This document shows, in pieces, positions 1,383 through 62,056 of a stretch of DNA of 64,000 nt. A program made the position numbers and the translations under genes. Below the pieces are notes generated by a model. It did no database searches. It worked only from the letters and a program-made list of their open reading frames with translations, and was not told where the DNA came from. Position 1 is the stretch's first letter, and each line of letters opens with the position of its first letter. This DNA is from Candidatus Yonathbacteria bacterium RIFCSPLOWO2_01_FULL_43_27 (lineage in GTDB: Bacteria > Patescibacteriota > Minisyncoccia > Phycocordibacterales > UBA1550): NCBI GenBank assembly GCA_001823545.1, contig MHUV01000006.1, forward strand, positions 27,437-91,436. Reading direction: 5' to 3'.

Positions 1383-1411
1383 ACAAGGGGCTCAGCCAAA
1401 CACGCAATTTT

Positions 1412-1613: not shown

Positions 1614-1655
1614 AATTATAACCACTCAAACGCTACGCGTTTTCGCGGACAATTG

Positions 1656-3530: not shown

Positions 3531-3637
3531 TAGCTCGTAGTACTCTATTGGCGTCCAAACCTAATACCTATGATCTTGTAGCTGAGATTAGGTATTTAAT
3601 TAATAACCCACTAAAATAAAATTCTCGCCATCGCTAT

Positions 3638-3671
3638 CGACGTATAATATACTATAGTATATTATACGTCG
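3638..3671. repeat. 34-bp perfect palindrome CGACGTATAATATACTATAGTATATTATACGTCG, copy 1 (candidate operator)
   Basis: Exact self-complementary sequence, identical to 4247-4280. It carries TATAAT on both strands. Confidence 0.9.
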
Positions 3672-3686
3672 GGGGTGTAAAAAAAA

Positions 3687-4232: not shown

Positions 4233-4241
4233 ATTAATTTT

Positions 4242-4285
4242 AATATCGACGTATAATATACTATAGTATATTATACGTCGATATT
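4242..4285. repeat. Same 34-bp perfect palindrome (4247-4280), copy 2, extended to 44 bp by ATAT flanks
   Basis: Identical to 3638-3671. It lies 15 bp upstream of the ATG of the 3687-4232 gene and overlaps its likely -10 region. Confidence 0.9.
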
Positions 4286-4346
4286 GTTATTTAATTTTAC
4301 AAAATAGGTAGACGAAATACCACACTGTAATACACCTATTGAAAGA

Positions 4347-5243: not shown

Positions 5244-5252
5244 TTCTGACGA

Positions 5253-5807: not shown

Positions 5808-5890
5808 AATTAAGTTTATTTAATGAGGAGCGTTTTTCACCTCATACTACTAAATGCTTATCCAACTATTATACCACAAAACAAACACTA

Positions 5891-6271
5891 TTACAGAGAG
5901 GCCTGAATCTGTGGGACTGGTACCCCTTTTGGATTTGTTCCGTATATGTTATCACCTGCCTGACTGTCCGTAACCAAGAAAATAAGAAGGATAATACTGC
6001 CAACAATAGGAATGAGACCAAGAAGTATCCACCATGCGCTGTGGTTGGTATCGTGAAGTCTACGCACATACACCGCAAGAGAAGGAACGAGCACCGCAAG
6101 GAGATATACAATACCGAGAACCTGAATAAAAGTTGAATCAAGTGCAAAGGAAAGGAAATTGAAACCAAGCATAATGAGGACATTAACGAGCGTGAACATC
6201 CAATACTCTTTTCTGCCAGCCCTTCCATTAAACAAGGCATATTTTTTCAACACCTCAATATAATTATCCAT
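5891..6271 (-). CDS. DUF805-family inner membrane protein
   Basis: FNGRAGRKEYW motif and multiple TM helices, typical of DUF805/YhaH-like proteins. Confidence 0.7.
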   Translation of the reverse strand: MDNYIEVLKKYALFNGRAGRKEYWMFTLVNVLIMLGFNFLSFALDSTFIQVLGIVYLLAVLVPSLAVYVRRLHDTNHSAWWILLGLIPIVGSIILLIFLVTDSQAGDNIYGTNPKGVPVPQIQASL

Positions 6272-6321
6272 ATATGATATATATTTACTCTTATAATACT
6301 AATATAATTAGTATTTCACAC

Positions 6322-6358
6322 CACACAGAAAACACAAGGTTTGACCTTGTGTTTTCTG
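6322..6358 (-). terminator. 16-bp perfect stem-loop downstream of groEL
   Basis: CACAGAAAACACAAGG-TTTGA-CCTTGTGTTTTCTGTG. No clear U-tract. Confidence 0.45.
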
Positions 6359-6383
6359 TGTTCAAAACAGCCATATTGCAAAA

Positions 6384-8567: not shown

Positions 8568-8714
8568 ATGCCGCCGAACGGAAGAATAACCAAAAACGTA
8601 GGTAAAACCTTTGTGACGGCTGACGCCATGGCCAGGACCAACGAGAGCACCAAAGTGAACGACAGATTGCACGGCGCCCACGACATTCCCGGGCACGGCA
8701 AGTTCGGCGCATAA
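8568..8714 (+). CDS. Small ORF, 48 aa (MPPNGRITKNVGKTFVTADAMARTNESTKVNDRLHGAHDIPGHGKFGA), unknown function
   Basis: AGGAGG sits 7 nt upstream of the ATG. The ORF is GC-rich relative to its surroundings and is followed by an intrinsic terminator. It is not in the ORF track (<60 aa). It could instead be part of an ncRNA. Confidence 0.3.
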   Translation: MPPNGRITKNVGKTFVTADAMARTNESTKVNDRLHGAHDIPGHGKFGA

Positions 8715-8821: not shown

Positions 8822-10780
8822 CTACTTCCCCGCCCCAAGTATTTTCTGTGCTTCACTATCTTTCCCATTTGCCGTTAATATCTGTGCGTAAAACATTCTT
8901 GCTTCGTCATACTCTGGTGCAAGTTCGTATGCCTGTTTAAAGATCTGCTCCGCCTGTTCTGTATTTCCATTTTTATAATACGCATTACCTAGTTCAAACA
9001 TAATCGTTTGTTTTGCGGGTGACAATGCGTGTGCTTTTTCCAAATACACAATTGCTTGCCCGAACATCCCCACGCGACTAAAGAAACTTCCGGTAAATAA
9101 CTGATAACGTGCATCCTGTGGAAGTGTTTCTGCTTGTGTGGTGAGTTCACGATCCGCAAGTATAAGAAACTCTTGTTGAGTACGTGTCAATTCTTTACCG
9201 CGTTCAATCCCCGAAAGAGAAATTTGTGCCAACTGTTCACGCACTTCCGAAGTACCAAACGAATCATACGAAAGTGCCTCTTTAAAGAGCGCGAGATTAT
9301 GTGCGGCACCAAGTGTCGCTGAGCGCTCGCTGAGTGCACGGAGTAGTGTCGTATTCTGTTTGTATCCTGCATAGTTCACTACATAAATGAGCACGAGTGC
9401 GAGCACGAGCGCCCCACCCGACACCACATATGACACATCTTCAGAAACACCTTGCAAAACTTCTTCTTTGGTTCCCTTCTTTTTTTCTACTACGGGCAAT
9501 TTATTACTTATACTTTCCACGAACGCAAGAATCGTGAAGAAGTAAATTAAACTCGTAATATTATCGAATACAAAAAGATTTTGAAAAAAATATCCTCCCA
9601 AAAGCCCCGTGAGTACGCTTTTTTCTAAGACAGAAAGTGTACGAGCACGTCGCCAGATACAGTAGAGCGCACATCCAAAAAGTGATAAGTATGCAAGGAG
9701 TGCCGGGAAACCACCCGCGATCAACCAATCAAAAAATACATTGTGCGCGCGGTCGAACCACTGCTCTTGGTCGTACATATTGGGGTTGTAGTATTCATTG
9801 AACACATAGTTGAAATTCTCCATCCCCCATCCACGAATTGGATGTTCTTTGAAACCCTGATATGCCATATTCCACACCATGAAGCGCGACTTGGTAGTTT
9901 TCTCTGTAAGCGAAATGGACGCAAAGCGCGCGAGCACAGGACTTTCACGAACGAACGAAGTATCACGAAGTACAATGAATCCGCCTACAAAAAGAGTGAG
10001 TGCAAGGAGCGTACCGATCGCTATTTTTCTTAACATGAGACGCTCACGCTCAAAGAGTGCGATGAGGATCATTGCAATACCAACCCCCACAATGAGTCCC
10101 AACATCGCGCCACGGGTCGCGGTGTGATAGAGCACAAACGTTTGTAGAATGGCGACTGCGCCATACAATAGCATTCTCATACGCGCACCAGTTTCGGTCA
10201 CACTTGTGTGCACCATCAAAAAGAGTGCGAGGAAAATATTGAAGAGTGCATACGTTCCAAGGTACGCAGCATTTCCAAGTGTGCCGTTTACGCGAATACC
10301 ATCTTGTACTACAGTGAGCATTCCCGCCCATTGCAACACCCCATACATCGCCATCGCAACACCAACCCCAACATGAAAATTAAGGTACGTGCGCCACATT
10401 GCACGTACCGAAAGCACGGTAGATGCCACAATAAAATATGCGAAGAGATGCAGGTACGTAATCACGCCTTCCATACGCTCAAAGTTAGACCAAAAACTTT
10501 TTTCTGGATTTTCACCCAAGAGTCCTGTGAGTGTGATAATAGCGAGGAACGCAACGAGGGCACCAAGAAGATAGCTCTTGCGTGGACGGTACGCGGGGTC
10601 TATTGCCATGAGAACCACCCATGCGGAAAGCATAATTTCCACAATCACCCGAAACGCAAAATTCTTGCCGACGATAAATGGAAAGAATGTACTATTCCCC
10701 AACACAATGAATGGAATAAACGGCACCGCCACAAATCCCATGGCAACCACAATGTTCGCTATTATTTTTTGTGTGTTCAT
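8822..10780 (-). CDS. O-antigen ligase/polymerase-like (Wzy_C) polytopic membrane protein with C-terminal TPR repeats
   Basis: About 12 TM helices plus the conserved Wzy_C-like loop, and a TPR-like C-terminus (AYYKNGNTEQAEQIFKQAYELAP). Confidence 0.6.
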   Translation of the reverse strand: MNTQKIIANIVVAMGFVAVPFIPFIVLGNSTFFPFIVGKNFAFRVIVEIMLSAWVVLMAIDPAYRPRKSYLLGALVAFLAIITLTGLLGENPEKSFWSNFERMEGVITYLHLFAYFIVASTVLSVRAMWRTYLNFHVGVGVAMAMYGVLQWAGMLTVVQDGIRVNGTLGNAAYLGTYALFNIFLALFLMVHTSVTETGARMRMLLYGAVAILQTFVLYHTATRGAMLGLIVGVGIAMILIALFERERLMLRKIAIGTLLALTLFVGGFIVLRDTSFVRESPVLARFASISLTEKTTKSRFMVWNMAYQGFKEHPIRGWGMENFNYVFNEYYNPNMYDQEQWFDRAHNVFFDWLIAGGFPALLAYLSLFGCALYCIWRRARTLSVLEKSVLTGLLGGYFFQNLFVFDNITSLIYFFTILAFVESISNKLPVVEKKKGTKEEVLQGVSEDVSYVVSGGALVLALVLIYVVNYAGYKQNTTLLRALSERSATLGAAHNLALFKEALSYDSFGTSEVREQLAQISLSGIERGKELTRTQQEFLILADRELTTQAETLPQDARYQLFTGSFFSRVGMFGQAIVYLEKAHALSPAKQTIMFELGNAYYKNGNTEQAEQIFKQAYELAPEYDEARMFYAQILTANGKDSEAQKILGAGK

Positions 10781-43983: not shown

Positions 43984-44910
43984 TTAATTGTTTAAATACT
44001 TTCTCACGGCGAGATAACTCGATACCGCACCGAGAACCACACCCGAGAGAATGATGATAGAAAAAATCTGTATGAAATTTGCCACAAAGTAGTGCAAGAG
44101 ATCAATGCCTCCATAAAATCCTTTCGTAGTATTTTTCAGCCAATAGGTGACTGGATAAAAGAGAATGATAGTAATAACCCCTGCAACAAGTCCATAAATA
44201 ATTCCCTCAACAACAAACGGGCCACGAATATACCCGTGCTCACCTCCCACAAGACGCATCACGCCGATTTCTTCACGTGCGATAAAGATAGCGAGACGAA
44301 TCGTATTAAACGTAATGAGCACTGAAATGCCAATCATAACGGCAGTAATGAAACTTCCCAATTTTTTCACGCCCGCAATAAGGCGCGCAAGACGGTCGAT
44401 AGCAACCTTATTATCGTTGTAATTTACCTTATCAACAATAGAAATTAAATCTGTAGAAAAAGAGCTTTTCTTTTCCAAAAATGTCGCTATCCCTTCATAG
44501 TGAGATGGTTCTTTTGCATTGATATTGAGTACTGCCGTCAAAGGGTTCTCCCCTACCTCTTCGAGTGCCTGAAGGATGCGCTGATCATTTTCGTGACGAA
44601 CACGGAATTGTTCGAGTGCCTGTTCGCGAGAGATATACGTAACTGCTTTCACTTCAGGAAGCGCCTCGAGCCTCTTTTTAAGGTCCATAATCGATGATTC
44701 TGGTGCCGTGCGAGTCAGATAAATATTAACATCAATTTTACCCTGAAGTTCTTTGAGTGCGGTGCCGAGAAATGCCGTCAAAAGGAGTGTTGCAGCGACG
44801 AGTGAAAGCGCGATAATCATCACAAATACCGCCGAGAGAGAAACGCTTCCATTACGCCAAAAATTAATAAACCCTGCTTTAAAAATTCGCTTGGTGTTTG
44901 TCCAAAACAT
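43984..44910 (-). CDS. FtsX-like permease
   Basis: FtsX N-terminal pattern and four TM helices with a large periplasmic loop. Confidence 0.7.
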   Translation of the reverse strand: MFWTNTKRIFKAGFINFWRNGSVSLSAVFVMIIALSLVAATLLLTAFLGTALKELQGKIDVNIYLTRTAPESSIMDLKKRLEALPEVKAVTYISREQALEQFRVRHENDQRILQALEEVGENPLTAVLNINAKEPSHYEGIATFLEKKSSFSTDLISIVDKVNYNDNKVAIDRLARLIAGVKKLGSFITAVMIGISVLITFNTIRLAIFIAREEIGVMRLVGGEHGYIRGPFVVEGIIYGLVAGVITIILFYPVTYWLKNTTKGFYGGIDLLHYFVANFIQIFSIIILSGVVLGAVSSYLAVRKYLNN

Positions 44911-45082
44911 ACTGCCATCTTACCATCTTTTTTATCCCGCGCAAAACAATATGCAAGAGATAGTGATAAATCGTTATAGTTGACCATTTTTACACAAAAA
45001 CAAGCGATTGTTTCTATCTTTTACGATTGAATATGTGGTAATTCTACAAAAACATCTTTATGTAAGACATTTTGTTGTGTAA

Positions 45083-45877
45083 TTAATTCCCGAATGTCAT
45101 TAGATTCGAACTCTCATATTTTTTTACTCCTGCAGTAAATAACTTAAGAGATAGCAAGAACCAGACAATAGCGACGACTGATACAATAACGAGTTTTTCA
45201 AGAGATACGTCCCTTACAATTTCCACCGGTAAAGCACCAGCAATCAAAGAAGGGATAAAGAACGTAAAAATAAATCGAGTCGCTCCTTGAAATGACCCTC
45301 CGTGAAAAAGTGTAGGGGTTAAGAACAATTCAAAAAGGCTACTCGTCACCGCGTGTGCGTCAGTAAACAAAAAACTTGCCGACATGACCGCAATCAACGC
45401 CGCGAGGAATACCATAGTCGAGACAACCACCAAGAAAACCATCAGGATAATTTGCACGATACTAATATGAATCAAAAAACTATAGACTCCTAAACATACG
45501 AGACCGAAGACTATATCCCCGATCGCTGAAGCGCTGAAACGAGAAGTCGCTATCCTTATCAATAAATTCTTTGGAGAAACCATAAACCTATCAAAGCTTC
45601 CGCTCGAGACATATTCCGCAGTCAATCCAATACCTGAGGCAATAGAGTGGACAACGCCATACGACAACGAACTAAACCCTAACAGGCCGATGATATCAGC
45701 CGCAGTCCAACCATGTATCACACCAACCGATTTTACAAAGAAAACCCAAATAATAATGAATGCGGTATTATTGATTGTCATACCGACAATATTCATCAAA
45801 AAACTCGTGCGGAGTTCCGCACTGCTTTGAATATTCTTCTTGATCGCATAGAGCGCAAAACTTAGTTCTTTTATCAT
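45083..45877 (-). CDS. ABC-2 type transporter permease
   Basis: Six TM helices. The start is set at internal Met (MIKELSFALY). The track ORF extends to 45994. Confidence 0.6.
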   Translation of the reverse strand: MIKELSFALYAIKKNIQSSAELRTSFLMNIVGMTINNTAFIIIWVFFVKSVGVIHGWTAADIIGLLGFSSLSYGVVHSIASGIGLTAEYVSSGSFDRFMVSPKNLLIRIATSRFSASAIGDIVFGLVCLGVYSFLIHISIVQIILMVFLVVVSTMVFLAALIAVMSASFLFTDAHAVTSSLFELFLTPTLFHGGSFQGATRFIFTFFIPSLIAGALPVEIVRDVSLEKLVIVSVVAIVWFLLSLKLFTAGVKKYESSNLMTFGN

Positions 45878-45885
45878 AAATATAA

Positions 45886-46686
45886 TTATCCCCCATTTAC
45901 AGAAACCTTCTTTCTCGCTTTCGCAAAAAGCAAAAGAGTAATCACCAAGAATGCAACGACCCAGAAAACTTGTATCCCTACCTTCATCATCCATTCAACA
46001 CCCCATGTCTCATAAACAGTGTGGGTCACAAACTGTGATGCGCCAAAAGGACTCCATACCGCAAACTTATACATAAGGTCCGGGAATAAGGCAACGGGCA
46101 GATATGACCCACCAAGGATCATCACCGTCTTGTCGACGACCCAAAAGACTGGATCAATATCTTCGATCCAAAAAGCCAATAGCCCAACTGCAGTATATAA
46201 AAATAAAGAAAGGAGCACCCCAAGAAGTACCACGATAACAAGGGTGGGGATAAAAATACGTGCCGACATTGTTTCGGGAATCCCTACAATGAAGGCAAGT
46301 GCAATTACTCCAACAAGAGAGATAACTAGAAATGAGTAGAGCCCTGTACCTACTTGCCACCACATCCGATATGAGAGATATGAGATCGGTTTACACAATA
46401 GTATTTCAACAGTCCCCGAACGAATGTCCCGCATAATTTCTTTCGAAATACCTCTCAAGCGAAGCACTGAGAACGCAAAGTAGAGAAACATGCTCCACGC
46501 AGCGATCAAAAATGTCGTACCATTAACCATGCCGTTATTCAAGCGGAATACATACCAGTACAAGAGAAGAAGTACGCCACAACGAGCGACCATACCAAAC
46601 GTATCGACCATGAGTTTGCCGGGATAATAAATACGATCCCTAACGAGCGTTTGAATTATTTTACTACCGAGCCGGATTACTTTCAT
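45886..46686 (-). CDS. ABC-2 type transporter permease
   Basis: Six TM helices. The start is set at internal Met ([11 protein letters not shown]). The track ORF extends to 46800. Confidence 0.6.
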
Positions 46687-47659
46687 AAATATTTCTAATG
46701 ATTGTTTCAAGATCGGTATCATAAACATTAATATCATCAACCATAAACACGTCGAGGAGTTTACGGAGTGCCTCTTGAACACCAATTTTACTAATATCAA
46801 TAATCACAGTTATCTTATCCTTACTCTTTACGGCATACTTCAAACCTTCCGGCAACTCAGGAAATACGCTGAATGTAGTATTCGGGGTAATATCGATGTT
46901 CTTTTCCTTTACAAAGGTACGTGCTAATTCTTGTGTTGGTAAATCTTTGACCAGCGTGCCGTGGTTGATGACGATTGTTCTTTCACACAAAGACTCAATA
47001 TCACCCACGTCATGTGATGTTAAGAAAATTGTTGTATTCTCTTCTTTATTTATCTTGAGGAGCAGGTCGCGAAATGATTTCTTTGCCACTACATCAAGCC
47101 CGATAGTCGGTTCGTCAAGAAAAATAATCTTCGGTTTGTGTATCAAAGACACAACAACTTCCGCTCTCATACGTTGACCGAGAGAGAGTTTTCGAACTGG
47201 CTGATCAATGAACGAACCAAGATCGAAAAGCTCCGAAAGCTCCTTGATACGGTGACGAATTTCCCGATCGCTCAGATCATACATAACACCAAAGAATTCA
47301 AGTGAGTCAGTGAGGGGCAGGTTTGGAAGTAACTGGGAGCGTTGCCCGAAAACAGTTCCAATCTTGTACGCAAGTTTTTTTCGATCATTAGATGGATCAA
47401 GACCAAGTACACGTATTTCTCCTGAAGTTGGGAACAATATACCCGTAAGCATCTTAATGGTTGTTGATTTTCCAGCACCGTTCGGACCAATGAACGCCAC
47501 GCGCTCACCACTCTTTACCGAGAAAGAAATATCGTCAACCGCTGTGATCTCTTTAATCTCCGGGTTGAAAAGATTTTTAATCCACCCTACGGATGGATTT
47601 TTTATTGGAAATGAAAAACTCTTTGAGAGACTCGAAACAACAATAGAATCTTGGTCCAT
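46664..47659 (-). CDS. ABC transporter ATP-binding protein (ABC-2 subfamily) with C-terminal extension
   Basis: Walker [10 protein letters not shown], signature LSLGQRMR, Walker [13 protein letters not shown]. Confidence 0.9.
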
Positions 47660-47741
47660 AAATGCAGTATATCCTAATCCCCGACACTTTCATATATGGA
47701 TATTATACGTAAACATATTCACATCCAAAACACCCCCACCC

Positions 47742-47905
47742 CTACTCTTGTGGCAATTCTACAAAAAACGTCGTTCCCTTCCCTGTGGCCGTATCAAACC
47801 ATACTTTACCGCCGTGCGCGTCAACGATTTTTTTGACGCTGAAAAGTCCGTAGCCGGTGGAATGGACGTTTACTTTCGTTCTTCGTAATTCTTTAAATAT
47901 TCCCT
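47742..47905 (-). pseudogene. Truncated duplicate of the 3' end (HATPase_c tail) of the histidine kinase gene at 51128-52669
   Basis: Reverse-strand frame encodes GIFKELRRTKVNVHSTGYGLFSVKKIVDAHGGKVWFDTATGKGTTFFVELPQE*, nearly identical to the kinase C-terminus. It has no start codon; an in-frame TGA lies at 47925-47927. It overlaps the 3' end of the NUDIX gene in another frame. Confidence 0.8.
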
Positions 47906-48420: not shown

Positions 48421-50472
48421 TTATTTGTTTAGACCGAGTTCTTTTGCAAAAAACGAAAGTTTGTATGCTGAACTTTCAACAATTTTTTCTGTTGATTTAC
48501 CGGCCCCATGCCCTGCATCAACCTCAGTTCTTAAAAAGACTTTGTTAATTTTGTTTACCCACTGAGCTAACGCTGTCATCTTGCGCGAATGTAGTGGGTT
48601 GACGCGCGTATCATTTTCTCCCGTAGTAAAAAAATATGCTGGGTATTCTTTCCCTTCTTTCATATTATGATATGGACTCCAAGACAAAATTGCCTTTAGG
48701 CCCGTCTCATCCCGAGGATCGCCGAGTTCCCCCGTCCATCGCACCGCCAACCCAAAAAGATGGAATCGAACAATATCCAAAATACCAACTTCCGCACATA
48801 CTGCCTTAAACAAATCTGGACGCTGGACAGAAACCGCAGTAACCAATGTCCCACCCATACTTCCACCAGAGATACCAAGGTGTTGTGGATTTGTATATTT
48901 CTGAGAAACAAGATATTCCGCAACAGCAATGAAATCATCGAATGAATTTTGCTTAGTCAACCCAGACCCCTCTTCTTGCCATTTTTTACCAAACTCACCA
49001 CCTCCTCGGATATTTGCAATCGCCAAAACACCTCCACGAACTAGCCATGGGGAAAAATTTTTCAAAAAAGATGGGCGAAGCGAACTACCATGTGCGCCAT
49101 ACCCACTTAAGATAAGGGGATTTTTTGAGTTTTTCTCTATATCTTTTTTACGGATCACAAACAGAGGAATTTTTGTGCCGTCTTTTGAAACACACCATTC
49201 CTGAGCAACAATATAATCTTCTGAACGAAGAGAACTTTCAGTAGACCTGTATTCATCATTTCTTTTTGTGTCTGGGTTATATCTGAATACTGTAAATGGA
49301 ACAATAAATGATTTTACGCCATAAAAATACTCTTCATCGTAATATCGCGCATTAATGCTATGTATGGCCGAAGAACTTGGCAATGGAAGTACATTTTCCA
49401 TAACTCCTTCATGGTCATACACACGAACCTCAGAACATACATTTACCAAGTAGTGAGCAAGTATTTTACTCTTTGAGATTGAGATAGAGTCAAGCACGTA
49501 TTCATTCTCAGGAATAAGCTCAATCCACTTTTCAATAGGCGTACTGTCCCACAACTCGAGAGCTACTGACAACACACGCTTTTTATCTGCCTTATAATTA
49601 GTTAGGAGATACACTTTTTCTTGAGAAAACGATATAGAGAATTTAGCCTTCATCTCGCCAAGAAATAAAGATACTGTTTTTTTGGCTGTATGATAAATGT
49701 AAATTCCATTTTCTGTCCACCCACGAGATACTGATATCACGAGATGCTCTCCGTTTGGGGATATCTTCAACGAAATCATATCGTCTAATGGTCTCCCGTG
49801 CCCAAAAACAAGAACGTCGCTCTCCTGTCCTGTCCCCAATGCATGAAAATATACTTTTAAATGCAAGTGTTCCTCATTAGAAGGAACCTCCCCTTGGTAT
49901 GGATGTCTTGTGTAATAAAAACCAGTTTCATCAGGCAACCACGCAATACTAGAATATCTACACCTTTCAAGTCGTTCGGGAAGAACCTCCCCTGTGTTAA
50001 TATTTTTTATATACACGGTCCCCATTTCTGAGCCTTTTGTAGAAAGCTCATAGGCAACAAATGACGACGAAACTGATTTCGTCCATTGAGAAAGCGTCAC
50101 TGTCCCATCTTGACTCAATTCATTTGGATTTACAACACAAACAGATTCCCCGTTTACGCCTTCTTTCATATAAAGAGCAAACTGTTGCTCACTTTGTTTT
50201 TTTTCTTGATAAAAATGTTTCCCTTGTCCAGGGACAGGTACAGAAAAAACTGTTTCTAAAAAAGATGATGATAATTCTTTTTGAAAAAAACCAAAAAAAT
50301 CACCACGAAGTCCTTTCTCTACGTATTCATTCTGTAGATTAATCCATTTTTTTACTTCTGGATTTTCTCCGTCTTCCAGCCATCGATATGGGTCAGTGAT
50401 AGGTGTGTTCAAAACCACCTCGTTAATTTCATCGCGTTTTGTATCAAAATTTTTCATAAGTATTATTACCAA
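48421..50472 (-). CDS. Prolyl oligopeptidase-family serine peptidase (S9)
   Basis: N-terminal beta-propeller region, then a C-terminal alpha/beta-hydrolase domain with nucleophile elbow GISGGSMGG. Confidence 0.85.
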   Translation of the reverse strand: MVIILMKNFDTKRDEINEVVLNTPITDPYRWLEDGENPEVKKWINLQNEYVEKGLRGDFFGFFQKELSSSFLETVFSVPVPGQGKHFYQEKKQSEQQFALYMKEGVNGESVCVVNPNELSQDGTVTLSQWTKSVSSSFVAYELSTKGSEMGTVYIKNINTGEVLPERLERCRYSSIAWLPDETGFYYTRHPYQGEVPSNEEHLHLKVYFHALGTGQESDVLVFGHGRPLDDMISLKISPNGEHLVISVSRGWTENGIYIYHTAKKTVSLFLGEMKAKFSISFSQEKVYLLTNYKADKKRVLSVALELWDSTPIEKWIELIPENEYVLDSISISKSKILAHYLVNVCSEVRVYDHEGVMENVLPLPSSSAIHSINARYYDEEYFYGVKSFIVPFTVFRYNPDTKRNDEYRSTESSLRSEDYIVAQEWCVSKDGTKIPLFVIRKKDIEKNSKNPLILSGYGAHGSSLRPSFLKNFSPWLVRGGVLAIANIRGGGEFGKKWQEEGSGLTKQNSFDDFIAVAEYLVSQKYTNPQHLGISGGSMGGTLVTAVSVQRPDLFKAVCAEVGILDIVRFHLFGLAVRWTGELGDPRDETGLKAILSWSPYHNMKEGKEYPAYFFTTGENDTRVNPLHSRKMTALAQWVNKINKVFLRTEVDAGHGAGKSTEKIVESSAYKLSFFAKELGLNK

Positions 50473-50547
50473 TACATCATCTTTTTTATTCTATTATATA
50501 TTACCAAATACAAGATATTCTGCACTTATTGAAGGATTAGCCCCTCA

Positions 50548-50591
50548 TTTTAAATTTAAACCCCTCTTGTTGCGTTACGCAACAAGAGGGG
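50548..50591 (-). terminator. Intrinsic terminator of the small-peptide operon
   Basis: CCCCTCTTGTTGCG-TTA-CGCAACAAGAGGGG 14-bp stem. On the minus strand it is followed by a U/A-rich tract (UUUAAAUUUAAAAU). Confidence 0.6.
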
Positions 50592-50636
50592 TTACTCTCC
50601 ATATTCACCATCTTGTGGAGGGGAAAAGAGAGGCCT

Positions 50637-50702
50637 TTACTTGCACGGAGGGTCATTGCTACCGGCGCCATGATTCCCGCCACAGTTTCCGCAGTCTGAC
50701 AT
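50637..50702 (-). CDS. Cys-rich micro-protein, 21 aa (MSDCGNCGGNHGAGSNDPPCK)
   Basis: Perfect SD AAAGGAGGTG 7 nt upstream of the ATG. Paralogous N-terminus with the upstream 22-aa peptide. Below the ORF-track length cut-off. Confidence 0.5.
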   Translation of the reverse strand: MSDCGNCGGNHGAGSNDPPCK

Positions 50703-50750
50703 ACCAATCACCTCCTTTCTGTGTGTAGTTTTTACTACTGAGAAAGAGTT

Positions 50751-50819
50751 CTACCCGTTGCAATCGCCGTCGCAAGGAGCACCTCCCGCCTCACAGTTAC
50801 CACCGCAGTTGTCACTCAT
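50751..50819 (-). CDS. Cys-rich micro-protein, 22 aa (MSDNCGGNCEAGGAPCDGDCNG)
   Basis: SD AAAGGAGGTGA 6 nt upstream of the ATG. C-x3-C-x6-C-x3-C spacing. Confidence 0.5.
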   Translation of the reverse strand: MSDNCGGNCEAGGAPCDGDCNG

Positions 50820-50857
50820 GGCACTCACCTCCTTTGTTTGAGACGTATGGAAAGCTT

Positions 50858-50962
50858 CTACTTCCAAGGTTCTATAAAAGACGGGTTTTCTCCTCGAGGA
50901 ACGCTGAGTGTGGGACCAGTGATACTAAAACTGCACAAAAACTCTTCACTTTTGTCGATCAT
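50858..50962 (-). CDS. Small ORF, 34 aa (MIDKSEEFLCSFSITGPTLSVPRGENPSFIEPWK), first cistron of the micro-operon
   Basis: SD AAAGGAGGAGG upstream. Located about 95 nt downstream of a consensus promoter. Confidence 0.4.
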   Translation of the reverse strand: MIDKSEEFLCSFSITGPTLSVPRGENPSFIEPWK

Positions 50963-51064
50963 CTGATCCTCCTCCTTTTACCGAGGCACGATTATTATAT
51001 AACTCCTTTATATAAAAAACAGGGAAGGTGTCCTCTTGTGAAGCTAAATTAACTATCTAGGTGT

Positions 51065-51093
51065 ATCATACCCCCCCGCCACCTTTTTGTCAA
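51065..51093 (-). promoter_or_regulatory. Sigma70-type promoter TTGACA-N17-TATGAT driving the small-peptide operon
   Basis: On the minus strand, TTGACA (51093-51088), a 17-nt spacer, and TATGAT (51070-51065). It lies immediately downstream of the histidine-kinase stop. Confidence 0.55.
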
Positions 51094-51127
51094 GAGCAGT
51101 AATTTTCAATTGAACCTGATTCTCCCC

Positions 51128-52669
51128 CTACCCCCTCGGCATCTCCACCCAAAACGTCGTTCCCTTCCCTGTTGCGGTATCAAACCATACCTTGCCACCG
51201 TGTGCGTCGACGATCTTTTTGACACTAAAAAGGCCGTAGCCGGTAGAGTGGACATTTACTTTGAGTGAATCTTTGCCGTGACCGCCCTCCTTAAAAAGGT
51301 TTGGTTTATCTTCATCACTGATACCAATGCCAGTGTCTTTAACAGAAAAGAGAATAGCGTTCCCTTTTTTCGACAATCCTACCGTAACCCCGCCTGCGAG
51401 GGTGTAGTTAACAGCATTCTCAACGAGATTTTTTAGAACGTGGGTAACGAGCTGGACGCGGTCACCGACAAATGTATAATCTCCCTCTTCAGAAATATTC
51501 GTCGTAAGTGAAAGCCCTTTTGTTTTTGCTTCCGACTCGACATCGTGCACCACCTCAAGCACCGCTTCTTTAAAATCAAATGGTTCTGGCTTTAACACAA
51601 GATCTTGACCAGATTCAAGGATCACAATAACCGAGCGAATAAGTTTCTTGGTATCGTCGTGGGCTTGCTCGAGGAATGGGCGCGCCTGATCTGAGACTGC
51701 GCCAAAACTACCGTCGAGAAGCATGCCGAACATATCTTTATCTTTCCCAAGCACATTTTTAATATCGTGACTCATAATACGATTGACACTCTTGAGCCTC
51801 CCTGCCAACTGCTCGATCTCCTCACGCAACGCAACTTCCTTTTTGACGCTTTTAATGAGGAAAAGGCCTATGAAAATTACAAAAACAAACGTCACCGCAC
51901 CAAGAATTTTCCCATTGAGCGTTTCCGCCATCACCGCCTGCGCAATAACCGCTGTCCAAATCGCAAAGGTCATCAATTCTGCAATAATAACTTTAATATT
52001 GAAAAGATGATGCTTAATAATAGCAAACGCAATAGACAATACTAGAATTAAAGTAAAAACAGGGCCTAACCAAGTATATTGAAATATGCCTATGTAAGGA
52101 AGTACGAGATCAGTAATAGTTGCAAAAAAAGAAGAGAGTAAGGAACCTAAAAAAATATATTTTAATTGTGTTTTTTGTAAAACATCTTTTGTTTTTCTGT
52201 ATTGTAAAAAAAGTGCCAAGTATCCTAATACAAATAAAAATGTTATGTATTCACCATAAAAAATATATCCTTGCTTTATTTCATATGCTTGTAAAAAAGT
52301 ATCACCAATTATTAACTTTGTAGAAAAAAGAAAATAAACAATAACAAGAAATGTAATCATTGGTAGGGCTAGTACATACTTCTTCTTTATTAATACTGAA
52401 GGAAAATTTAACGAAAAATATAGAAAAAATAGAGCAATAAAAGCTGCCGCTGTATGTGTCAAAGTTAGCCAGATCTCTGGGGAGAGGAATTTAAAGCCTG
52501 AAGAGAAAAAACCCAAAATTGCGATACTCCACAAAACCACACCAAAAGATATTGAGCCAAAAAAAATGTTGATTTTATCCTTTGGATCTTGCAATAAAAC
52601 GACTAAACTTAGAATTAAGTTGATTAGAATGACAACCGAAAAAATATATGGAAGAAAATTAAGCATCAC
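51128..52669 (-). CDS. Multi-TM (7TM-receptor-like) sensor histidine kinase; no cognate response regulator nearby
   Basis: About 8-9 N-terminal TM helices with no large extracellular domain, H-box MSHDIKNVLG, C-terminal HATPase_c (GIGISDE...GGHG...STGYGLFSVKKIVDAHGGKVW). 1-nt overlap with the upstream gene. Confidence 0.8.
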   Translation of the reverse strand: MMLNFLPYIFSVVILINLILSLVVLLQDPKDKINIFFGSISFGVVLWSIAILGFFSSGFKFLSPEIWLTLTHTAAAFIALFFLYFSLNFPSVLIKKKYVLALPMITFLVIVYFLFSTKLIIGDTFLQAYEIKQGYIFYGEYITFLFVLGYLALFLQYRKTKDVLQKTQLKYIFLGSLLSSFFATITDLVLPYIGIFQYTWLGPVFTLILVLSIAFAIIKHHLFNIKVIIAELMTFAIWTAVIAQAVMAETLNGKILGAVTFVFVIFIGLFLIKSVKKEVALREEIEQLAGRLKSVNRIMSHDIKNVLGKDKDMFGMLLDGSFGAVSDQARPFLEQAHDDTKKLIRSVIVILESGQDLVLKPEPFDFKEAVLEVVHDVESEAKTKGLSLTTNISEEGDYTFVGDRVQLVTHVLKNLVENAVNYTLAGGVTVGLSKKGNAILFSVKDTGIGISDEDKPNLFKEGGHGKDSLKVNVHSTGYGLFSVKKIVDAHGGKVWFDTATGKGTTFWVEMPRG

Positions 52670-53418
52670 TAAATTATTCCTAACATTTTAAGAAATCCAT
52701 TATATAAATTACTCCTCAAAACATACTTCGTGTCTTCTGCTTTTTGAAACATGCGAGAATTATGAAGCACATCATCAATATATTTTCCAATTTCATCAGT
52801 AATAAAATATATAGGAATAACCTTATCGCCTTCTTGGTTAAAATAATTATACAACACTCCTTCTTGTTGATAAATCTGTCTATAATTATCTATTGTATGA
52901 ACAGGTATCTTTAATTTTTTTAATTTACTATCTAGTTTTTCTTTAATAAATGCATACCCTCCACTAATTCCACTATTTAAACCAAAATCAGCTAGACATT
53001 TTATCATGAAAAGCATGACAATATTTCTGGGCAAATATTTATTGTTATCATTTCGGGCAACTATTAAGCGTCCTATTTCAGCTCTATTTTCTCTCGAGAT
53101 ACTCTTAATGTCCGATGGCTCTTCAAAAGAAAAACATTCTTTCTCTGTAGGAAGGAATTGATCTTTTATTAATCTGACAGTCCCAATAATTTGTTCGTCA
53201 ACTTTTGCAATGAAATAATCACACTTGCCACTCAGATCATAGTCATCTATATCTTGTTGTGATGGAAACAATTTTGGATCTATATAGCCCCTCGATGTAT
53301 ATATATTGTATCTTAAGCGATACATTTCTTGCAATTCTTTTTCACAGTTTGGTACTCCAAAATAAATAGTTTTATTTTGCTTATTATCCTCGACACTCAA
53401 TTCGTACATTATTTTCAT
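52669..53418 (-). CDS. GNAT-fold N-acyltransferase of the autoinducer-synthase superfamily (LuxI/FeeM-like N-acyl amino acid synthase family)
   Basis: MYRLRYNIYTSRGYID...DDYD...IIGTVRLI...AEIGRLIV matches the R.RY.VF...GW / E.SRL pattern of N-acyl amino acid synthases (Acetyltransf_5). Confidence 0.5.
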   Translation of the reverse strand: MKIMYELSVEDNKQNKTIYFGVPNCEKELQEMYRLRYNIYTSRGYIDPKLFPSQQDIDDYDLSGKCDYFIAKVDEQIIGTVRLIKDQFLPTEKECFSFEEPSDIKSISRENRAEIGRLIVARNDNNKYLPRNIVMLFMIKCLADFGLNSGISGGYAFIKEKLDSKLKKLKIPVHTIDNYRQIYQQEGVLYNYFNQEGDKVIPIYFITDEIGKYIDDVLHNSRMFQKAEDTKYVLRSNLYNGFLKMLGII

Positions 53419-53422
53419 TTTT

Positions 53423-54127
53423 CTATATTTTTTGAGCGGTATTTAAAATCCCCTGCCCTGCATACACGACGTGATCATCAGAAATGTCTTTAAACCCCAC
53501 TTGTGACAATAATGCCTTCTGCTCTCCCTGTTTAAAGAAGTCGTAACTACCTGACTTATTTTCCTTCTTGATTAATGAATTATAGTAAAAAATCTTGATT
53601 GTAGGAATAAGGAATTTAAATATTTTGAAAATTGACACAATTCCATTATTTTTAAAATCTTGAGTAACTTGTTCAAAATAAATTTTTAAAGGCGAAAACC
53701 CTTCTACAATATTTGAAACAACAATAACACCCCCTGGCTTTAAAACTCTGTGCAACTCTTTTGCAACCGCTACCCGAGACGTTCTCGGTAACGTGTAGAG
53801 TACATTATTTGAGCAAATCTTATCAAAGTAATTATCCTTAAAAGGAAGTGGTTTTAAAATATCCCCAACCTCAACAATAGCATCTTTCTGTTTTTGTTTA
53901 TAAAGATCAAGTCCTTCTTTAGAACTATCAAAGGCGACTACCTGTGCACCAATATTTGAAAGAATTATCGCCAAGTTTCCCGTACCCGCGCCAGCATCGA
54001 GGACTAAGTCCCCTTTTTTGATTTTCAGATTGTCTTTGACCGAACCGAGAAGGTTCTGATACGGCCTAAGCTCGTTCAGAACATCGTATACTGCAAAATA
54101 TTTTCTCCAAAAATCATCCTTGGTCAT
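53423..54127 (-). CDS. Class I SAM-dependent methyltransferase (Methyltransf_11/25-like)
   Basis: Motif I LVLDAGAGTGNLA, post-I VVAFDSS, motif II LKPGGVIVV. Confidence 0.85.
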   Translation of the reverse strand: MTKDDFWRKYFAVYDVLNELRPYQNLLGSVKDNLKIKKGDLVLDAGAGTGNLAIILSNIGAQVVAFDSSKEGLDLYKQKQKDAIVEVGDILKPLPFKDNYFDKICSNNVLYTLPRTSRVAVAKELHRVLKPGGVIVVSNIVEGFSPLKIYFEQVTQDFKNNGIVSIFKIFKFLIPTIKIFYYNSLIKKENKSGSYDFFKQGEQKALLSQVGFKDISDDHVVYAGQGILNTAQKI

Positions 54128-54357
54128 TTTGTATGAGTTATGAGGGCTAGAGTGGGCTGTTTATGTTTATGTATATGGTTACGTATTTTTCTCCCCTATT
54201 CCCCTATTATCCCCCCATAAAAACATAGGGGGTAATATATTTGTTTGGAGAAAGTCGTTTTAGGGGGTATTATTGATACATCAAGGTTTTTACGCCTAAG
54301 CTTCTAAACTAATATATAAATAATCAAAAAGGAGGCAATCCGAAAAATATTAAAAAT

Positions 54358-55218: not shown

Positions 55219-55318
55219 GAGAACAGCCACCATTGCTCTTACCCTCCATAAAAACATAAGGGGTGTGAAAATGGGTAAGAATTTTATGGAAAAGTAGGGT
55301 GTTTCGGTAAAATTTTTT
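55219..55318 (+). repeat. Dispersed intergenic repeat element, copy 1 (modules A' + C + E)
   Basis: Shares CCATAAAAACATA(A/G)GGGGT...AATTTTAT(A/G)G...GG(T)TTTCGGT..AATTTTTT with 57905-57990, and partly with 63120-63200 and 54213-54236. It also contains a CCATAAAA / TTTTATGG inverted repeat. Confidence 0.6.
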
Positions 55319-56976: not shown

Positions 56977-57651
56977 ATGCCACGCATTACCCGTACCGAC
57001 ATCGGTAATCATTGCTACCATGTCATCAATCGCGCCAACGCTCGACTCCCCATTTTCTTTGCAGAACAGGACTACCTTTTATTTGAGGAAGTTTTGGAAG
57101 AAGCACAAAAGAAGTTTTCTATGAGGATCCTTGCGTATTGTCTTATGCCAAATCATTTCCACCTAGTACTCTATCCCATAAATGACGGCGATATGGGGAA
57201 GTTTATGCAATGGCTCACACTCACTCATACCCAGCGCTGGCACCAAGCGAACAATACAAAAGGAAGCGGACACCTCTATCAAGGGAGATACAAATCTTTT
57301 TTAATACAAGACGACAAACACCTTCTTTCCGTCATCCGCTATGTAGAGCGAAATTCGTTGCGTGCAAAATTAGTTAAAAAAGCAGAGAATTGGGGTTTCT
57401 GCAGTTTGGCGCGACGTCTTTCAGAGCACCCAGCAAAAAAGAAACTTTTGTCAGCGTGGCCGATACTTGAGCCCGAAGACTATCTTTCATTTGTTAATAT
57501 ACCTCAAACAAGAGAAGAAGAAGAACTCATCAGGGGGTCTGTTGTAAAAGGGAAGCCATTTGGCGCAGATGCATGGGCTATGAAAATGATCAAGAAGTTT
57601 GGGCTGGAAACTACTGTCCGACCCACAGGGAGACCCAAAAAGGGTACCTGA
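56977..57651 (+). mobile_element. IS200/IS605-family Y1 (HUH) transposase, RAYT-like
   Basis: HUH motif PNHFHLVL and the catalytic-Tyr motif RYVERNSLRAKLV (compare Y.ERNPVRAGLV of REP-associated tyrosine transposases). Confidence 0.7.
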
Positions 57652-57659
57652 CCCCCTTT

Positions 57660-57812
57660 ACTCCCCGTACCCGCGCCTGCATCAAGGACTAAGTCCCCTT
57701 TTTTGATTTTCAGATTGTCTTTGACCGAACCGAGAAGGTCCTGATACGGCCTAAGCTCGTTCAGAACATCGTATACTGCAAAATATTTTCTCCAAAAATC
57801 ATCCTTGGTCAT
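57660..57812 (-). pseudogene. Duplicated 5' fragment (first 51 codons + upstream promoter region) of the methyltransferase gene at 53423-54127
   Basis: Encodes MTKDDFWRKYFAVYDVLNELRPYQDLLGSVKDNLKIKKGDLVLDAGAGTG, then diverges. Including the upstream region, this is a ~250-bp near-identical direct repeat of 53988-54240 at 57663-57930. Confidence 0.8.
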
Positions 57813-57889
57813 TTTGTATGAGTTATGAGGGCTAGAGTGGGCTGTTTATGTTTATGTATATGGTTACGTATTTTTCTCCCCTATTCCCC

Positions 57890-57990
57890 TATTATCCCCC
57901 ATTCTACCAAATCCCCCCATAAAAACATAGAGGGTATGGAATGGGGTGGGAATTTATAGAAAAATATGGTATTTCGAAAGGATCTTTTAG
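57890..57990 (+). repeat. Dispersed intergenic repeat element, copy 2 (modules D + B + C + E)
   Basis: TTTTCTCCCCTATTCCCCTATTATCCCCC + ATTCTACCAAA + CCCCCCATAAAAACATAGAGGGT...GGTATTTCG. Confidence 0.6.
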
Positions 57991-59983: not shown

Positions 59984-60050
59984 GAGGACAGCCACCATTG
60001 TTTTGTCTTTTGTGTATTCTAAGATATTATTATTCCCCCATTCTACCAAA
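59984..60050 (+). repeat. Intergenic repeat modules A + B upstream of argS (copy 1)
   Basis: GAGGACAGCCACCATTGTTTTGTCTTTTGTGTATTCTAAGATATT ... CCCCCATTCTACCAAA; about 90% identical to 61964-62056. Confidence 0.7.
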
Positions 60051-60214: not shown

Positions 60215-60676
60215 ATGCCCACGGAGGATATTTCTTTGTATCGACACCATATCGGCTGTGACATAAACACTCTTGTGGCAGAAGTATACGATCTGGTAAA
60301 GGATGTAACAAAATGCCCACAGGTTTCTTCTCGAGTCAAAGATTTGGAAACACTGAGAAAGAAGATGGTACTCAAAAATACTCATGACATCTTCTCTATC
60401 GACGACGTATATGGGATACGCATCATAGTTACTTCTATAGATGAAGTATACGCCGTCCTTGAGAGAATCTCTCGAGTATTCGAAGGATTCCTCGACCACG
60501 ATTACTTCAAGAACGCAAAGGCGTGCCCGAGCGTCGACGGAAAGTTCTTACGACTGGTGCAATTCGTTGCATACAAAAACAAAGTTCCGTTTGAGGTGCA
60601 GGTCACAACAGCATCTTGTCACGAAACCAACGAATCACTCCATGCGAGATATCATCGGAGAAAATATGGTTCGTAA
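60215..60676 (+). CDS. Small alarmone synthetase (RelA/SpoT-synthetase-domain nucleotidyltransferase; possible toxSAS-type enzyme)
   Basis: Substrate-binding motif SRVKDLETLRKK (RxKxxxS/TxxxK), G-loop DDVYGIRIIV (DxxGxRII), and catalytic strand FEVQVTT (compare EIQIRT). Confidence 0.75.
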   Translation: MPTEDISLYRHHIGCDINTLVAEVYDLVKDVTKCPQVSSRVKDLETLRKKMVLKNTHDIFSIDDVYGIRIIVTSIDEVYAVLERISRVFEGFLDHDYFKNAKACPSVDGKFLRLVQFVAYKNKVPFEVQVTTASCHETNESLHARYHRRKYGS

Positions 60677-60699
60677 ACCCATGATGACTGGCTCATGCC

Positions 60700-61287
60700 T
60701 CATTGTGGGTTTTCTTTTTTACATAACTCTGATATTTCAAAATAGTCTTTCACTATTTGATGCTCCCCAAGTGCAGATTTTAAAATATTGCCGATTTCTG
60801 CATAGTACCACCGATAATCATCGGGTGTACCACGGAAATGAGATATCACATTCTCATTTTTTTCTCTCAACGCGCTGAAGTATGCCTGCAAATTAGACAT
60901 CTTATCGATTGCGACAATGATGAGTGCGTCTGGTGATGCTGTTTTTATTTTTTCTAAATACGCCATCTTTTTTTCTTTCCATGTTGCATATTCTTCTTCC
61001 TCGACGAGACTCACCTCGTCTACAAGTTGTGCTATATGTTGACCAAATTCTTCTTGCAGATGAGCAAGAGAAACATCGGAACAATCTTCGAGCACGTCAT
61101 GAAGAAGTGCTGCGGTAATTATTCTTTCATCGTCTGTGTACTCGGAAAGACTGAGTGCTACCAATACAGGATGCACTATGTATGGTACTCGACCGCCTTT
61201 GCGGTACTGCCCATCATGTTTTTGAGCTGCGAAATATAGAGCTCGTTTGATAGAGGAATGTTCTTTTTTCATAGAGATCACGGGCAC
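60700..61287 (-). CDS. Small alarmone hydrolase (HD domain, SpoT/Mesh1-like (p)ppGpp/(p)ppApp pyrophosphohydrolase)
   Basis: RKGGRVPYIVHPVLVA and AALLHDVLED (HD motif) match the SpoT hydrolase domain. 10-nt overlap with the upstream PP-loop gene. Confidence 0.8.
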   Translation of the reverse strand: MPVISMKKEHSSIKRALYFAAQKHDGQYRKGGRVPYIVHPVLVALSLSEYTDDERIITAALLHDVLEDCSDVSLAHLQEEFGQHIAQLVDEVSLVEEEEYATWKEKKMAYLEKIKTASPDALIIVAIDKMSNLQAYFSALREKNENVISHFRGTPDDYRWYYAEIGNILKSALGEHQIVKDYFEISELCKKENPQ

Positions 61288-61963: not shown

Positions 61964-62056
61964 GAGGACAACCATCATTGTTTTGTCTTTTGTGTATTCT
62001 AATATATTAAAATTCCACATTTCTCTTCCCCTTATAATCCCCCCCATTCTACCAAA
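61964..62056 (+). repeat. Intergenic repeat modules A + B (copy 2), upstream of the PP-loop gene
   Basis: GAGGACAACCATCATTGTTTTGTCTTTTGTGTATTCTAATATATT ... CCCCCATTCTACCAAA. Confidence 0.7.

Follow-up and report, generated by a model that had tools for sequence, protein, structure and literature searches.

In Vibrio, the pairs LuxM/LuxN, AinS/AinR and CqsA/CqsS each combine an autoinducer synthase with a multi-pass membrane kinase, and in PEP-CTERM/exosortase systems an acyltransferase of the TIGR03694 family is likewise found with a multi-transmembrane kinase, PrsK. A quorum-sensing pair of Ralstonia consists of the S-adenosylmethionine (SAM) methyltransferase PhcB, whose signal is a methyl ester, and the kinase PhcS (PMC8578825). 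N-acyl alanine methyl esters have been described as analogues of N-acyl homoserine lactones (AHLs), with synthase genes still unidentified (PMC11580390). Here we analyse a locus from Candidatus Yonathbacteria bacterium RIFCSPLOWO2_01_FULL_43_27 in which genes for a methyltransferase, a GNAT-type N-acyltransferase and a membrane histidine kinase are followed by a unit of very small open reading frames (ORFs). The locus lies in a 64,000-nt stretch of contig MHUV01000006.1, hereafter the window; related loci are labelled L0xx and related proteins P0xxx. Its host belongs to the Candidate Phyla Radiation (CPR)/Patescibacteria, ultra-small and host-dependent bacteria in which cell–cell signalling is essentially unexplained, and the three-gene cassette is a concrete candidate for a lipid-like autoinducer system there.

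An initial annotation, made from the DNA letters, had proposed a single peptide-signalling or peptide-modification module. All features that it named were confirmed in the window, and its interpretation was partly supported. We instead read the locus as two adjacent yet separable units, a cassette (54127-51128) that would make and sense a lipid-like signal and a micro-gene unit (51093-50559) that would encode a metal- or thiol-binding micro-protein. We give this reading, with the functions as proposed, a probability of about 50%.

The methyltransferase–GNAT–kinase cassette

The cassette comprises three genes (aa, amino acids):
53423..54127, minus strand: SAM-dependent class I methyltransferase of 234 aa, which opens the cassette (Pfam Methyltransf_11)
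52669..53418, minus strand: GNAT, a LuxI/FeeM-type N-acyltransferase, 249 aa (Pfam and fold)
51128..52669, minus strand: membrane histidine kinase, 513 aa, with an N-terminal multi-helix bundle, H-box SHDIKN and HATPase_c

The three genes lie in the ORF list where the initial annotation had placed them, with a gap of 4 nt between methyltransferase and GNAT and an overlap of 1 nt between GNAT and kinase, and Pfam profile matches uphold the enzyme identities given there. Together they form a conserved, tightly coupled unit. Scanning one genome per species with the GNAT family alignment gave eight loci. The methyltransferase is present in all eight and lies directly upstream of GNAT, overlapping or nearly abutting it, in seven; the complete order is kept in six, with the kinase directly after GNAT at overlaps or gaps of 4-11 nt (2-11 nt for the intergenic overlaps and gaps within cassette loci generally). 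L019, whose kinase is 87% identical, and L022 have GNAT–kinase pairs as well. Fusion proteins join the two enzymes in both orders (GNAT–methyltransferase in P0288 and P0308, methyltransferase–GNAT in P0360), which is strong evidence that they work in one pathway, and P0328 fuses GNAT to an aminotransferase.

The cassette is rare and mainly confined to Patescibacteria. A profile search of 1.84 billion cluster representatives recovered 126 GNAT family clusters at E<=1e-30, and six of the eight genome loci carry a Patescibacteria label. The two others are labelled as gammaproteobacterial metagenome-assembled genomes, a label that is probably due to mis-binning because the contigs are short and have a GC content of 25-33%. 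The locus itself was found in many groundwater assemblies. Ten public contigs (L001-L010) encode an identical GNAT, and because their spacer is 100% identical to that of the window, they carry no evolutionary information. GNAT (29.6% GC) and the methyltransferase (35.9%) fall below the window mean of 41.4%, while ORF2 and ORF3 of the micro-gene unit reach 56-59%; either an accessory origin or effects of codon composition would account for such differences.

The LuxI-like fold and signature residues place GNAT within the LuxI/FeeM branch of GNATs. Its best Pfam match is FeeM PF21926 (7e-12, 45.9 bits, cutoff 27), and it also passes the Autoind_synth PF00765 cutoff (27.1 bits, cutoff 24). TIGR03694, the best NCBIfam match, scores 50.5 bits, below its cutoff of 111.95. 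In Foldseek searches of the Protein Data Bank (PDB) with an AlphaFold2 (AF2) model (pLDDT 91.7), the top matches were the CoA-dependent AHL synthases BjaI, RpaI and MesI, then LasI, TofI, EsaI and FeeM; E values for BjaI, LasI, RpaI, MesI and TofI ranged from 1e-8 to 2e-6 with target-normalised TM up to 0.73, and FeeM (2g0b) followed at ~4e-6. A GNAT family profile run against PDB sequences likewise ranked RpaI and LasI first. When aligned with LasI and RpaI, the LuxI signature residues (N-terminal R, F, W, D, D and R) and the catalytic E and R fall on the invariant family columns R36, Y40, Y45, D58, D61, R82 and E114 and on the nearly invariant R117. With either SAM or an amino acid as possible acyl acceptor, GNAT may be a synthase of AHLs from SAM and acyl-ACP or acyl-CoA, and some database records already name family members AHL synthases. 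No LuxR-type receptor (Autoind_bind or GerE) was found among the called genes of the window.

The methyltransferase is a generic class I enzyme (Methyltransf_11, 1.6e-19). The kinase matches HATPase_c (2.7e-24) and has its H-box at about residue 300, the H column being nearly invariant in the family; it has no receiver domain. The AF2 model of residues 1-279 (pLDDT 92) consists of nine helices joined by short loops; from this model and the hydropathy profile, the N-terminus is a helical bundle with short loops only, predicted to have no extracytoplasmic sensor domain. Relatives at 52-66% identity carry PF16927 HisKA_7TM, and a stand-alone 7TM protein of L013 aligns to the N-terminus of the window kinase (1.5e-7). 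Compared by fold with the PDB, the sensor matched nothing informative, the nearest structures being weak and generic 7-helix ones of GPCR-like type (E >= 7e-3, TM ~0.5).

In our best reading, for which we infer the chemistry, the ligand–receptor relation and the output, the cassette would encode a lipid-like signal synthase and its membrane receptor. GNAT would move an acyl chain from acyl-CoA or acyl-ACP onto a small amine, either an amino acid or the SAM-derived homoserine moiety, and the co-evolving methyltransferase would methylate the product, a candidate being an N-acyl amino-acid methyl ester that looks like an AHL. Within its helical bundle in the membrane, the translationally coupled kinase would detect the hydrophobic molecule so made and autophosphorylate, making the cassette a synthase–receptor pair of the LuxM/LuxN, CqsA/CqsS or PhcB/PhcS type.

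The micro-gene unit and prolyl oligopeptidase

Downstream of the kinase lie the following features (POP, prolyl oligopeptidase; SD, Shine-Dalgarno sequence):
51065..51093, minus strand: sigma-70-like promoter, TTGACA-17-TATGAT, 11/12 consensus positions, upstream of the micro-ORF unit
50858..50962, minus strand: ORF1, 34 aa, putative, strong SD, in the window's species only
50751..50819, minus strand: ORF2, 22 aa, MSDNCGGNCEAGGAPCDGDCNG, four Cys, SD
50637..50702, minus strand: ORF3, 21 aa, MSDCGNCGGNHGAGSNDPPCK, conserved C-x2-C-x3-H-x8-C micro-protein gene
50559..50593, minus strand: terminator-like hairpin, 16-bp stem and T/A-rich tail
48421..50457, minus strand: POP, S9 prolyl oligopeptidase, 678 aa, Peptidase_S9_N and Peptidase_S9, next gene after ORF3

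ORF3 has orthologues in four other species (L035, L037, L038 and L039). The peptide is identical in the window, L035 and L038, shows an N6H change in L037 and takes a 26-aa form, MKKLTMGDCGNCGGNHGQGSNDPPCK, in L039. Between the window and L035, 13 codons differ, all at the third position and all synonymously (chance of random placement ~2e-9), and the synonymous to non-synonymous codon differences among the orthologues are 13:0, 6:0 and 8:1. The five-species alignment shows clean period-3 conservation, with Cys4, Cys7, His11 and Cys20 of the C-x2-C-x3-H-x8-C pattern invariant. The hairpin is retained in all five species, and in L039 four of its base pairs are changed on both sides (compensatory). 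The synonymous divergence, the period-3 pattern and the retained hairpin together show that ORF3 is a genuine gene, strongly selected and equipped with a terminator. It was missed by gene callers despite textbook purifying selection, none of the micro-ORFs being called in any public contig of the locus, and with its 21 residues it enlarges the still short list of bacterial micro-proteins that have been validated.

The promoter, the three SD-led micro-ORFs and the terminator are where the initial annotation had seen them. The promoter is the best site of the 4-kb region, in which the number of promoter-like sites is not above that in shuffles (15 vs 13.0 +/- 3.9), and in L035 and L038 a TTGACA followed 16-18 nt downstream by a -10-like hexamer (TATATT, TATTAT) likewise stands ahead of ORF3. 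Each micro-ORF ATG is preceded by AAGGAGG, a heptamer that occurs 16 times on both window strands, three of them within 260 nt at the micro-ORFs. The 101-nt hairpin region folds at -43.4 kcal/mol (z = -5.8); a simple terminator scan did not flag it because its T-run is interrupted.

ORF1 and ORF2 stand differently. L035 and L038 lack both, ORF3 coming straight after the promoter there, and neither has relatives in any fetched locus, so that the conservation that the initial annotation had asked for in related genomes was found for ORF3 and not for them. The paralogy proposed for ORF2 and ORF3 rests on a shared MSD start, NCGGN and the same SD context, while their similarity is statistically not significant; ORF2 is probably a young, diverged, lineage-specific duplicate of ORF3, and the status of ORF1 as a gene is uncertain. 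Pfam and NCBIfam gave no match to any of the three micro-peptides. A metagenome scan for the motif SD-ATG-x-D-(0-2 aa)-NCGGN returned 10 matches, all attributable to chance (transposase-like ORFs, zinc-ribbon proteins matched at their N-termini and, in a phage-like contig, an ORF of 10 aa), and as it also missed the source population, it says little about absence. A viral-contig scan for the ORF3 core gave 0 matches.

ORF3 lies directly upstream of POP in five of the six closest POP loci. Four of these are listed with their POP identity to the window and, where it is informative, the upstream neighbour of ORF3, after the window itself:
Window: full kinase upstream of ORF3
L035: POP 81% identical, ORF3 directly upstream; ORF3 preceded by a 34-codon kinase remnant, with a radical SAM (rSAM) island between the remnant and another kinase end
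L037: POP 85% identical, ORF3 directly upstream
L038: POP 78% identical, ORF3 directly upstream; ORF3 preceded by a 168-codon kinase fragment that abuts an rSAM gene
L039: POP 68% identical, ORF3 directly upstream; ORF3 preceded by an unrelated divergent gene

POP is constant downstream and the upstream neighbour varies, so ORF3–POP is the older linkage. Co-occurrence of the micro-ORFs with the kinase, which the initial annotation had proposed to look for, did not emerge: the ORF3 orthologues track POP, and L039 has ORF3 and POP without an upstream kinase. The adjacency of ORF3 and cassette is recent, restricted to one sub-clade and tied to rearrangements at the kinase 3' end. The POP gene, which starts ~100 nt past the hairpin, also contradicts the earlier statement that no dedicated protease lies nearby, as does an ABC transporter at 43984-47659, ~3 kb beyond the POP start region, for the claimed lack of an exporter. 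POP itself is an orthologue of the housekeeping type and widespread, 1078 relatives being found at E<=1e-100.

The micro-gene unit would be independently transcribed, its core being ORF3, an acidic, Gly-rich 21-residue peptide. Judging from its residue pattern, ORF3 is most likely a small trans-acting micro-protein that binds metal or thiols and may have to do with POP, and it raises a possible link between a micro-protein and a prolyl oligopeptidase. Like zinc-knuckle micro-proteins, it has four conserved ligand-type residues, including a CxxCG knuckle. A metallothionein was considered and rejected, as the Cys are too few (3 in 21 residues in ORF3, 4 in 22 in ORF2) for a family with ~30% Cys in Cys-X-Cys or Cys-Cys clusters.

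Competing explanations and the surrounding DNA

Several points weigh against the two-unit reading. CPR bacteria are usually without fatty-acid synthesis, which bears on the acyl donor. No Response_reg domain was found in the window, the initial annotation having already noted that no response regulator lies near the three genes, or in the examined cassette loci, and the window kinase itself matches neither HisKA_7TM at E<=1 nor the HisKA Pfam model. PlsC-type neighbours fit membrane aminolipid synthesis equally well, and a peptide acceptor is still conceivable because the best solved relatives of the methyltransferase are peptide methyltransferases and maturases for ribosomally synthesized, post-translationally modified peptides (RiPPs) recur near cassettes. 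For the micro-gene unit, L036 (POP 70% identical) has no ORF3, simple synteny in a clade of narrow range could explain why ORF3 and POP are linked, and the proposed metal binding is read from the pattern of residues.

Aminolipid synthesis is the main rival to a signalling role of the cassette. GNAT would then be an OlsB/GlsB-like N-acyl amino-acid synthase and the methyltransferase an OlsG-like head-group methylase, while the kinase would monitor the membrane or lipid state. GNAT does pass the cutoff of PF13444 Acetyltransf_5, the OlsB-type family (32.3 bits vs 22.4), and CPR bacteria are generally known to build membranes from scavenged fatty acids. PlsC-type (OlsA-like) O-acyltransferases lie directly upstream of the methyltransferase in L016 and L018, and the L011 operon encodes a hydrolase, an AMP-binding (acyl-activating) enzyme, methyltransferase, GNAT and kinase, in this order. 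PlsC partners are nevertheless limited to 2 of ~12 loci, with no PF01553 gene in the window, and the NCBIfam OlsB model scores GNAT at 13.7 bits against a cutoff of 320. The translational coupling of a kinase to a lipid synthase has no known precedent, and the rarity of the family is odd for a core membrane function. We regard this alternative as possible but rather doubtful. Other cassette neighbours are stand-alone HisKA_7TM proteins upstream of the methyltransferase in L013 and L014 and a class IV aminotransferase downstream in L013. The GNAT–aminotransferase fusion and the acyl-AMP ligase and PlsC neighbours argue that the acceptor is a small molecule or a lipid and not a peptide.

For the micro-gene unit, ORF3 could instead be a cis-acting leader peptide whose translation, for example through stalling at Asp-Pro-Pro, controls read-through of the hairpin into POP. 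ORF3, wherever found, is directly upstream of POP and followed by the conserved terminator hairpin, POP has no SD while the micro-ORFs have one, and DPP is generally known as a strong EF-P-dependent stalling motif. Against this, invariance extends over the whole 19-residue core of ORF3 and not over a few codons only. RNAalifold supports the terminator alone and no conserved antiterminator pairing, and in L039 the spacer from stop codon to hairpin is different and shorter. At the gathering threshold, Rfam finds two tRNAs only in the window, and at E<=1 the spacer yields noise and no known leader. This explanation is unlikely. Candidate attenuator pairings ahead of POP had been seen by eye and were discarded, being unsupported by the five-species alignment.

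The comparative evidence disfavours the model of the initial annotation, in which GNAT and methyltransferase act on ORF2 and ORF3 and the 7TM kinase binds the lipopeptide that results from this acylation and methylation. Cassette and micro-ORF unit are adjacent in the window, the nearest solved relatives of the methyltransferase are the RiPP methyltransferases CypM (9e-11) and LahSB, and GNATs are known to fatty-acylate RiPPs such as the selidamides (PMC8784127). However, the conservation of ORF3 goes with POP, L039 has ORF3 but no cassette, the ORF3 unit has a separate promoter and terminator, the peptides are leaderless (ORF2 has no Lys), and the GNAT–aminotransferase fusion and acyl-lipid neighbours point to small-molecule acceptors. 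Because six cassette loci have no SD-led small ORF nearby, the claimed link between peptides, enzymes and kinase is weakly supported, and we consider it improbable.

What favours a peptide is the recurrence of RiPP maturases. rSAM-SPASM maturases adjoin the cassette or its kinase in L012, L015, L021, L035 and L038, each visible case with an SD-led small precursor gene and several with HExxH proteins, and L022 has a SagD-type YcaO and a C39-like peptidase beside its GNAT–kinase pair. In L015, methyltransferase and GNAT are even separated by an insert (3558-5849), all of it on the same strand, that encodes a Cys-rich precursor of 50 aa, an rSAM-SPASM maturase of FibroRumin-like type and an HExxH protein, and a leader-bearing precursor together with a maturase was found in L015, L021 and L035. 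Maturases and small precursor genes beside such cassettes in about four independent loci thus hint at residual support for a peptide link. The rSAM islands nevertheless bring their own, unrelated precursors, no SD-led small ORF was found at cassette loci without a maturase, so the core needs no peptide gene, and no rSAM-SPASM, YcaO or Lan enzyme lies near the 21-22-aa, leaderless micro-peptides of the window.

A ribosomal lipopeptide pheromone system of Patescibacteria built around the cassette is improbable, too; in it, GNAT and methyltransferase would acylate and methylate small peptides (rSAM- or YcaO-modified precursors in some species, leaderless Cys-rich micro-peptides here), the kinase would sense the mature lipopeptide and POP would trim it at Pro-Pro. 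That the micro-ORFs are chance ORFs in a non-coding spacer, a view that gene callers and the lack of orthologues for ORF1 and ORF2 would favour, is refuted for ORF3 by its 13:0 synonymous differences and period-3 conservation across five species; the three full SD motifs clustered at the micro-ORFs also speak against it, and overall it is very improbable.

The sister-species island is an uncharacterised, RiPP-like one. It combines an anSME/DynA-like rSAM-SPASM maturase with a 46-aa precursor (MESSAQ...GRDSCGGGKPGPWDQGHWANRK), whose gene has the same SD as the micro-ORFs, and two HExxH proteins that have no Pfam matches. In L035 its parts lie at 1044-2307 (minus strand) and at 139-999 and 2470-3210 (plus strand), and in L038 at 3-1100 (minus strand).

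The locus is recombinationally scarred, as the initial annotation had suspected from partial duplicates of both operon ends, which both exist (83% and 99% DNA identity, in the order listed):
47739..47876, minus strand: duplicate of the final ~43 kinase codons (3' end), following a NUDIX gene; matches 51125-51262
57664..57900, minus strand: copy of the methyltransferase 5' end and upstream DNA, 99%, matching 53979-54215; abuts an IS200-like Y1 transposase
56977..57651, plus strand: Y1 transposase, IS200-like (Y1_Tnp 2.9e-16)

The window copy of the kinase 3' end has 83% DNA but 93% amino-acid identity to the kinase; it probably derives from a diverged functional allele and not from in-situ decay. 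The same copy follows NUDIX in L035, and in both loci such copies flank the ORF3–POP–NUDIX block. In L035, the last 34-44 kinase codons are copied at 2-103, 3259-3360 and 6243-6374, flanking the rSAM island and the ORF3–POP–NUDIX block. Recombination or integration seems to favour the kinase 3' end as a hotspot. The RiPP maturase islands at kinase genes, together with kinase 3'-end copies around inserts, suggest that CPR genomes have a hotspot here for accessory genes of peptide chemistry.

At the other end of the cassette, the 237-nt repeat of the methyltransferase 5' end and upstream DNA brackets a 3.4-kb segment. Besides two alpha/beta hydrolases and a DUF397-like ORF, this segment holds an integrase fragment and the Y1 transposase; the distal copy of the repeat yields a chimeric 102-aa ORF (57504-57812, minus strand). 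The window alpha/beta hydrolases are not homologous to the L011 operon hydrolase at E<=1e-3. An intergenic motif, GGACAGCCACCATTGTTTT, occurs three times in the window (59986-60004, 61966-61984 and 55221-55239; 0.02 expected) and again at the junction before the kinase remnant in L035 (~3240-3262); it may be an element of the repetitive extragenic palindromic (REP) type, related to the Y1 transposase.

Elsewhere in the window, a ~30-kb same-strand run of glycosylation/nonulosonic-acid genes (8800-40500) includes NeuB, CTP_transf_3, many GT1, GT2, GT4 and GT9 glycosyltransferases, Wzy_C, methyltransferases and a 571-aa Radical_SAM/Radical_SAM_C protein. A 48-aa ORF at 8568-8714 (plus strand), TTAGGAGG, has a strong SD and no match in Pfam, and public annotations list it as a gene; it lies between the Wzy_C/TPR (O-antigen ligase-like) gene at 8822-10780 and the GroES/GroEL genes. 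Beside ArgRS, at 60215-61287, genes for an HD_4 hydrolase and a small alarmone synthetase (RelA_SpoT) make up a compact (p)ppGpp module in this CPR genome.

Comparison with known systems

Haloarchaeal zinc-finger micro-proteins carry C(P)XCG knuckles, and there are fungal Cu-metallothioneins of 25 residues. ORF3 resembles such small Cys-rich metal-binding peptides in its CGNCG knuckle followed by a His and a Cys, in its 21-aa length and in its richness in Gly, Asn, Ser and Asp. It differs from the haloarchaeal micro-proteins in having one knuckle instead of two, with putative metal ligands, and in its linkage to a POP gene, and from metallothioneins in having 3 Cys (14%) against ~30% Cys. In amatoxin-producing fungi, MSDIN precursor peptides are processed by the prolyl oligopeptidase POPB. 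ORF3 is likewise a short MSD- peptide gene beside a POP-family gene and contains Pro residues, but it has a single Pro-Pro site near its C-terminus and its POP is of the housekeeping type; the resemblance is probably coincidental.

The RiPP systems resemble the cassette through the kinship of CypM and LahSB to the methyltransferase, through GNAT-catalysed fatty acylation of ribosomal peptides and through the maturases beside some cassettes. The selidamide GNATs, however, are of the PF00583 type and form a separate clade (PMC8784127), and the window has neither a leader-bearing precursor nor a maturase. Ornithine and glycine aminolipid synthesis (OlsB/OlsA/OlsG, GlsB/GlsA) shares with the cassettes an Acetyltransf_5-type N-acyltransferase, a methyltransferase and, in L016 and L018, PlsC. 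It differs in that the OlsB model stays far below its cutoff here, the window is without PlsC and a kinase is coupled to the synthase.

FeeM-type synthases and TIGR03694 supply the best Pfam and NCBIfam models for GNAT, respectively, and the acyltransferase–kinase adjacency recalls the pair with PrsK. The TIGR03694 score is nevertheless below cutoff, and the window contains no exosortase or PEP-CTERM genes, as the initial annotation had stated. With the LuxI-type AHL synthases (BjaI, RpaI, MesI, LasI, TofI and EsaI), GNAT shares the fold, the PDB profile match and the residues R, F/Y, W/Y, D, D, R, E and R, whereas identity is 12-18%, ~50 C-terminal residues are extra, the F and W positions are Y, no LuxR partner is present and the FeeM model scores higher.

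The LuxM/LuxN-type and PhcB/PhcS pairs share with the cassette a synthase gene beside a kinase whose bundle is embedded in the membrane with no periplasmic domain. Their signals are hydrophobic acyl compounds, and the product of the cassette would by analogy be hydrophobic as well. The cassette departs from them in its enzyme families (a LuxI/FeeM-type GNAT and a Methyltransf_11 methyltransferase), in a kinase of probable HisKA_7TM lineage without a receiver domain or a response regulator nearby, and in its CPR host. Our literature search on LuxI/FeeM-type synthases, HisKA_7TM and RiPP–kinase links in CPR/Patescibacteria found no description of the cassette or the micro-protein. The LuxI/FeeM GNAT, the class I methyltransferase, the probable HisKA_7TM kinase and the Cys-rich micro-protein are each of a known kind; what is new is their combination and the CPR setting in which it occurs.

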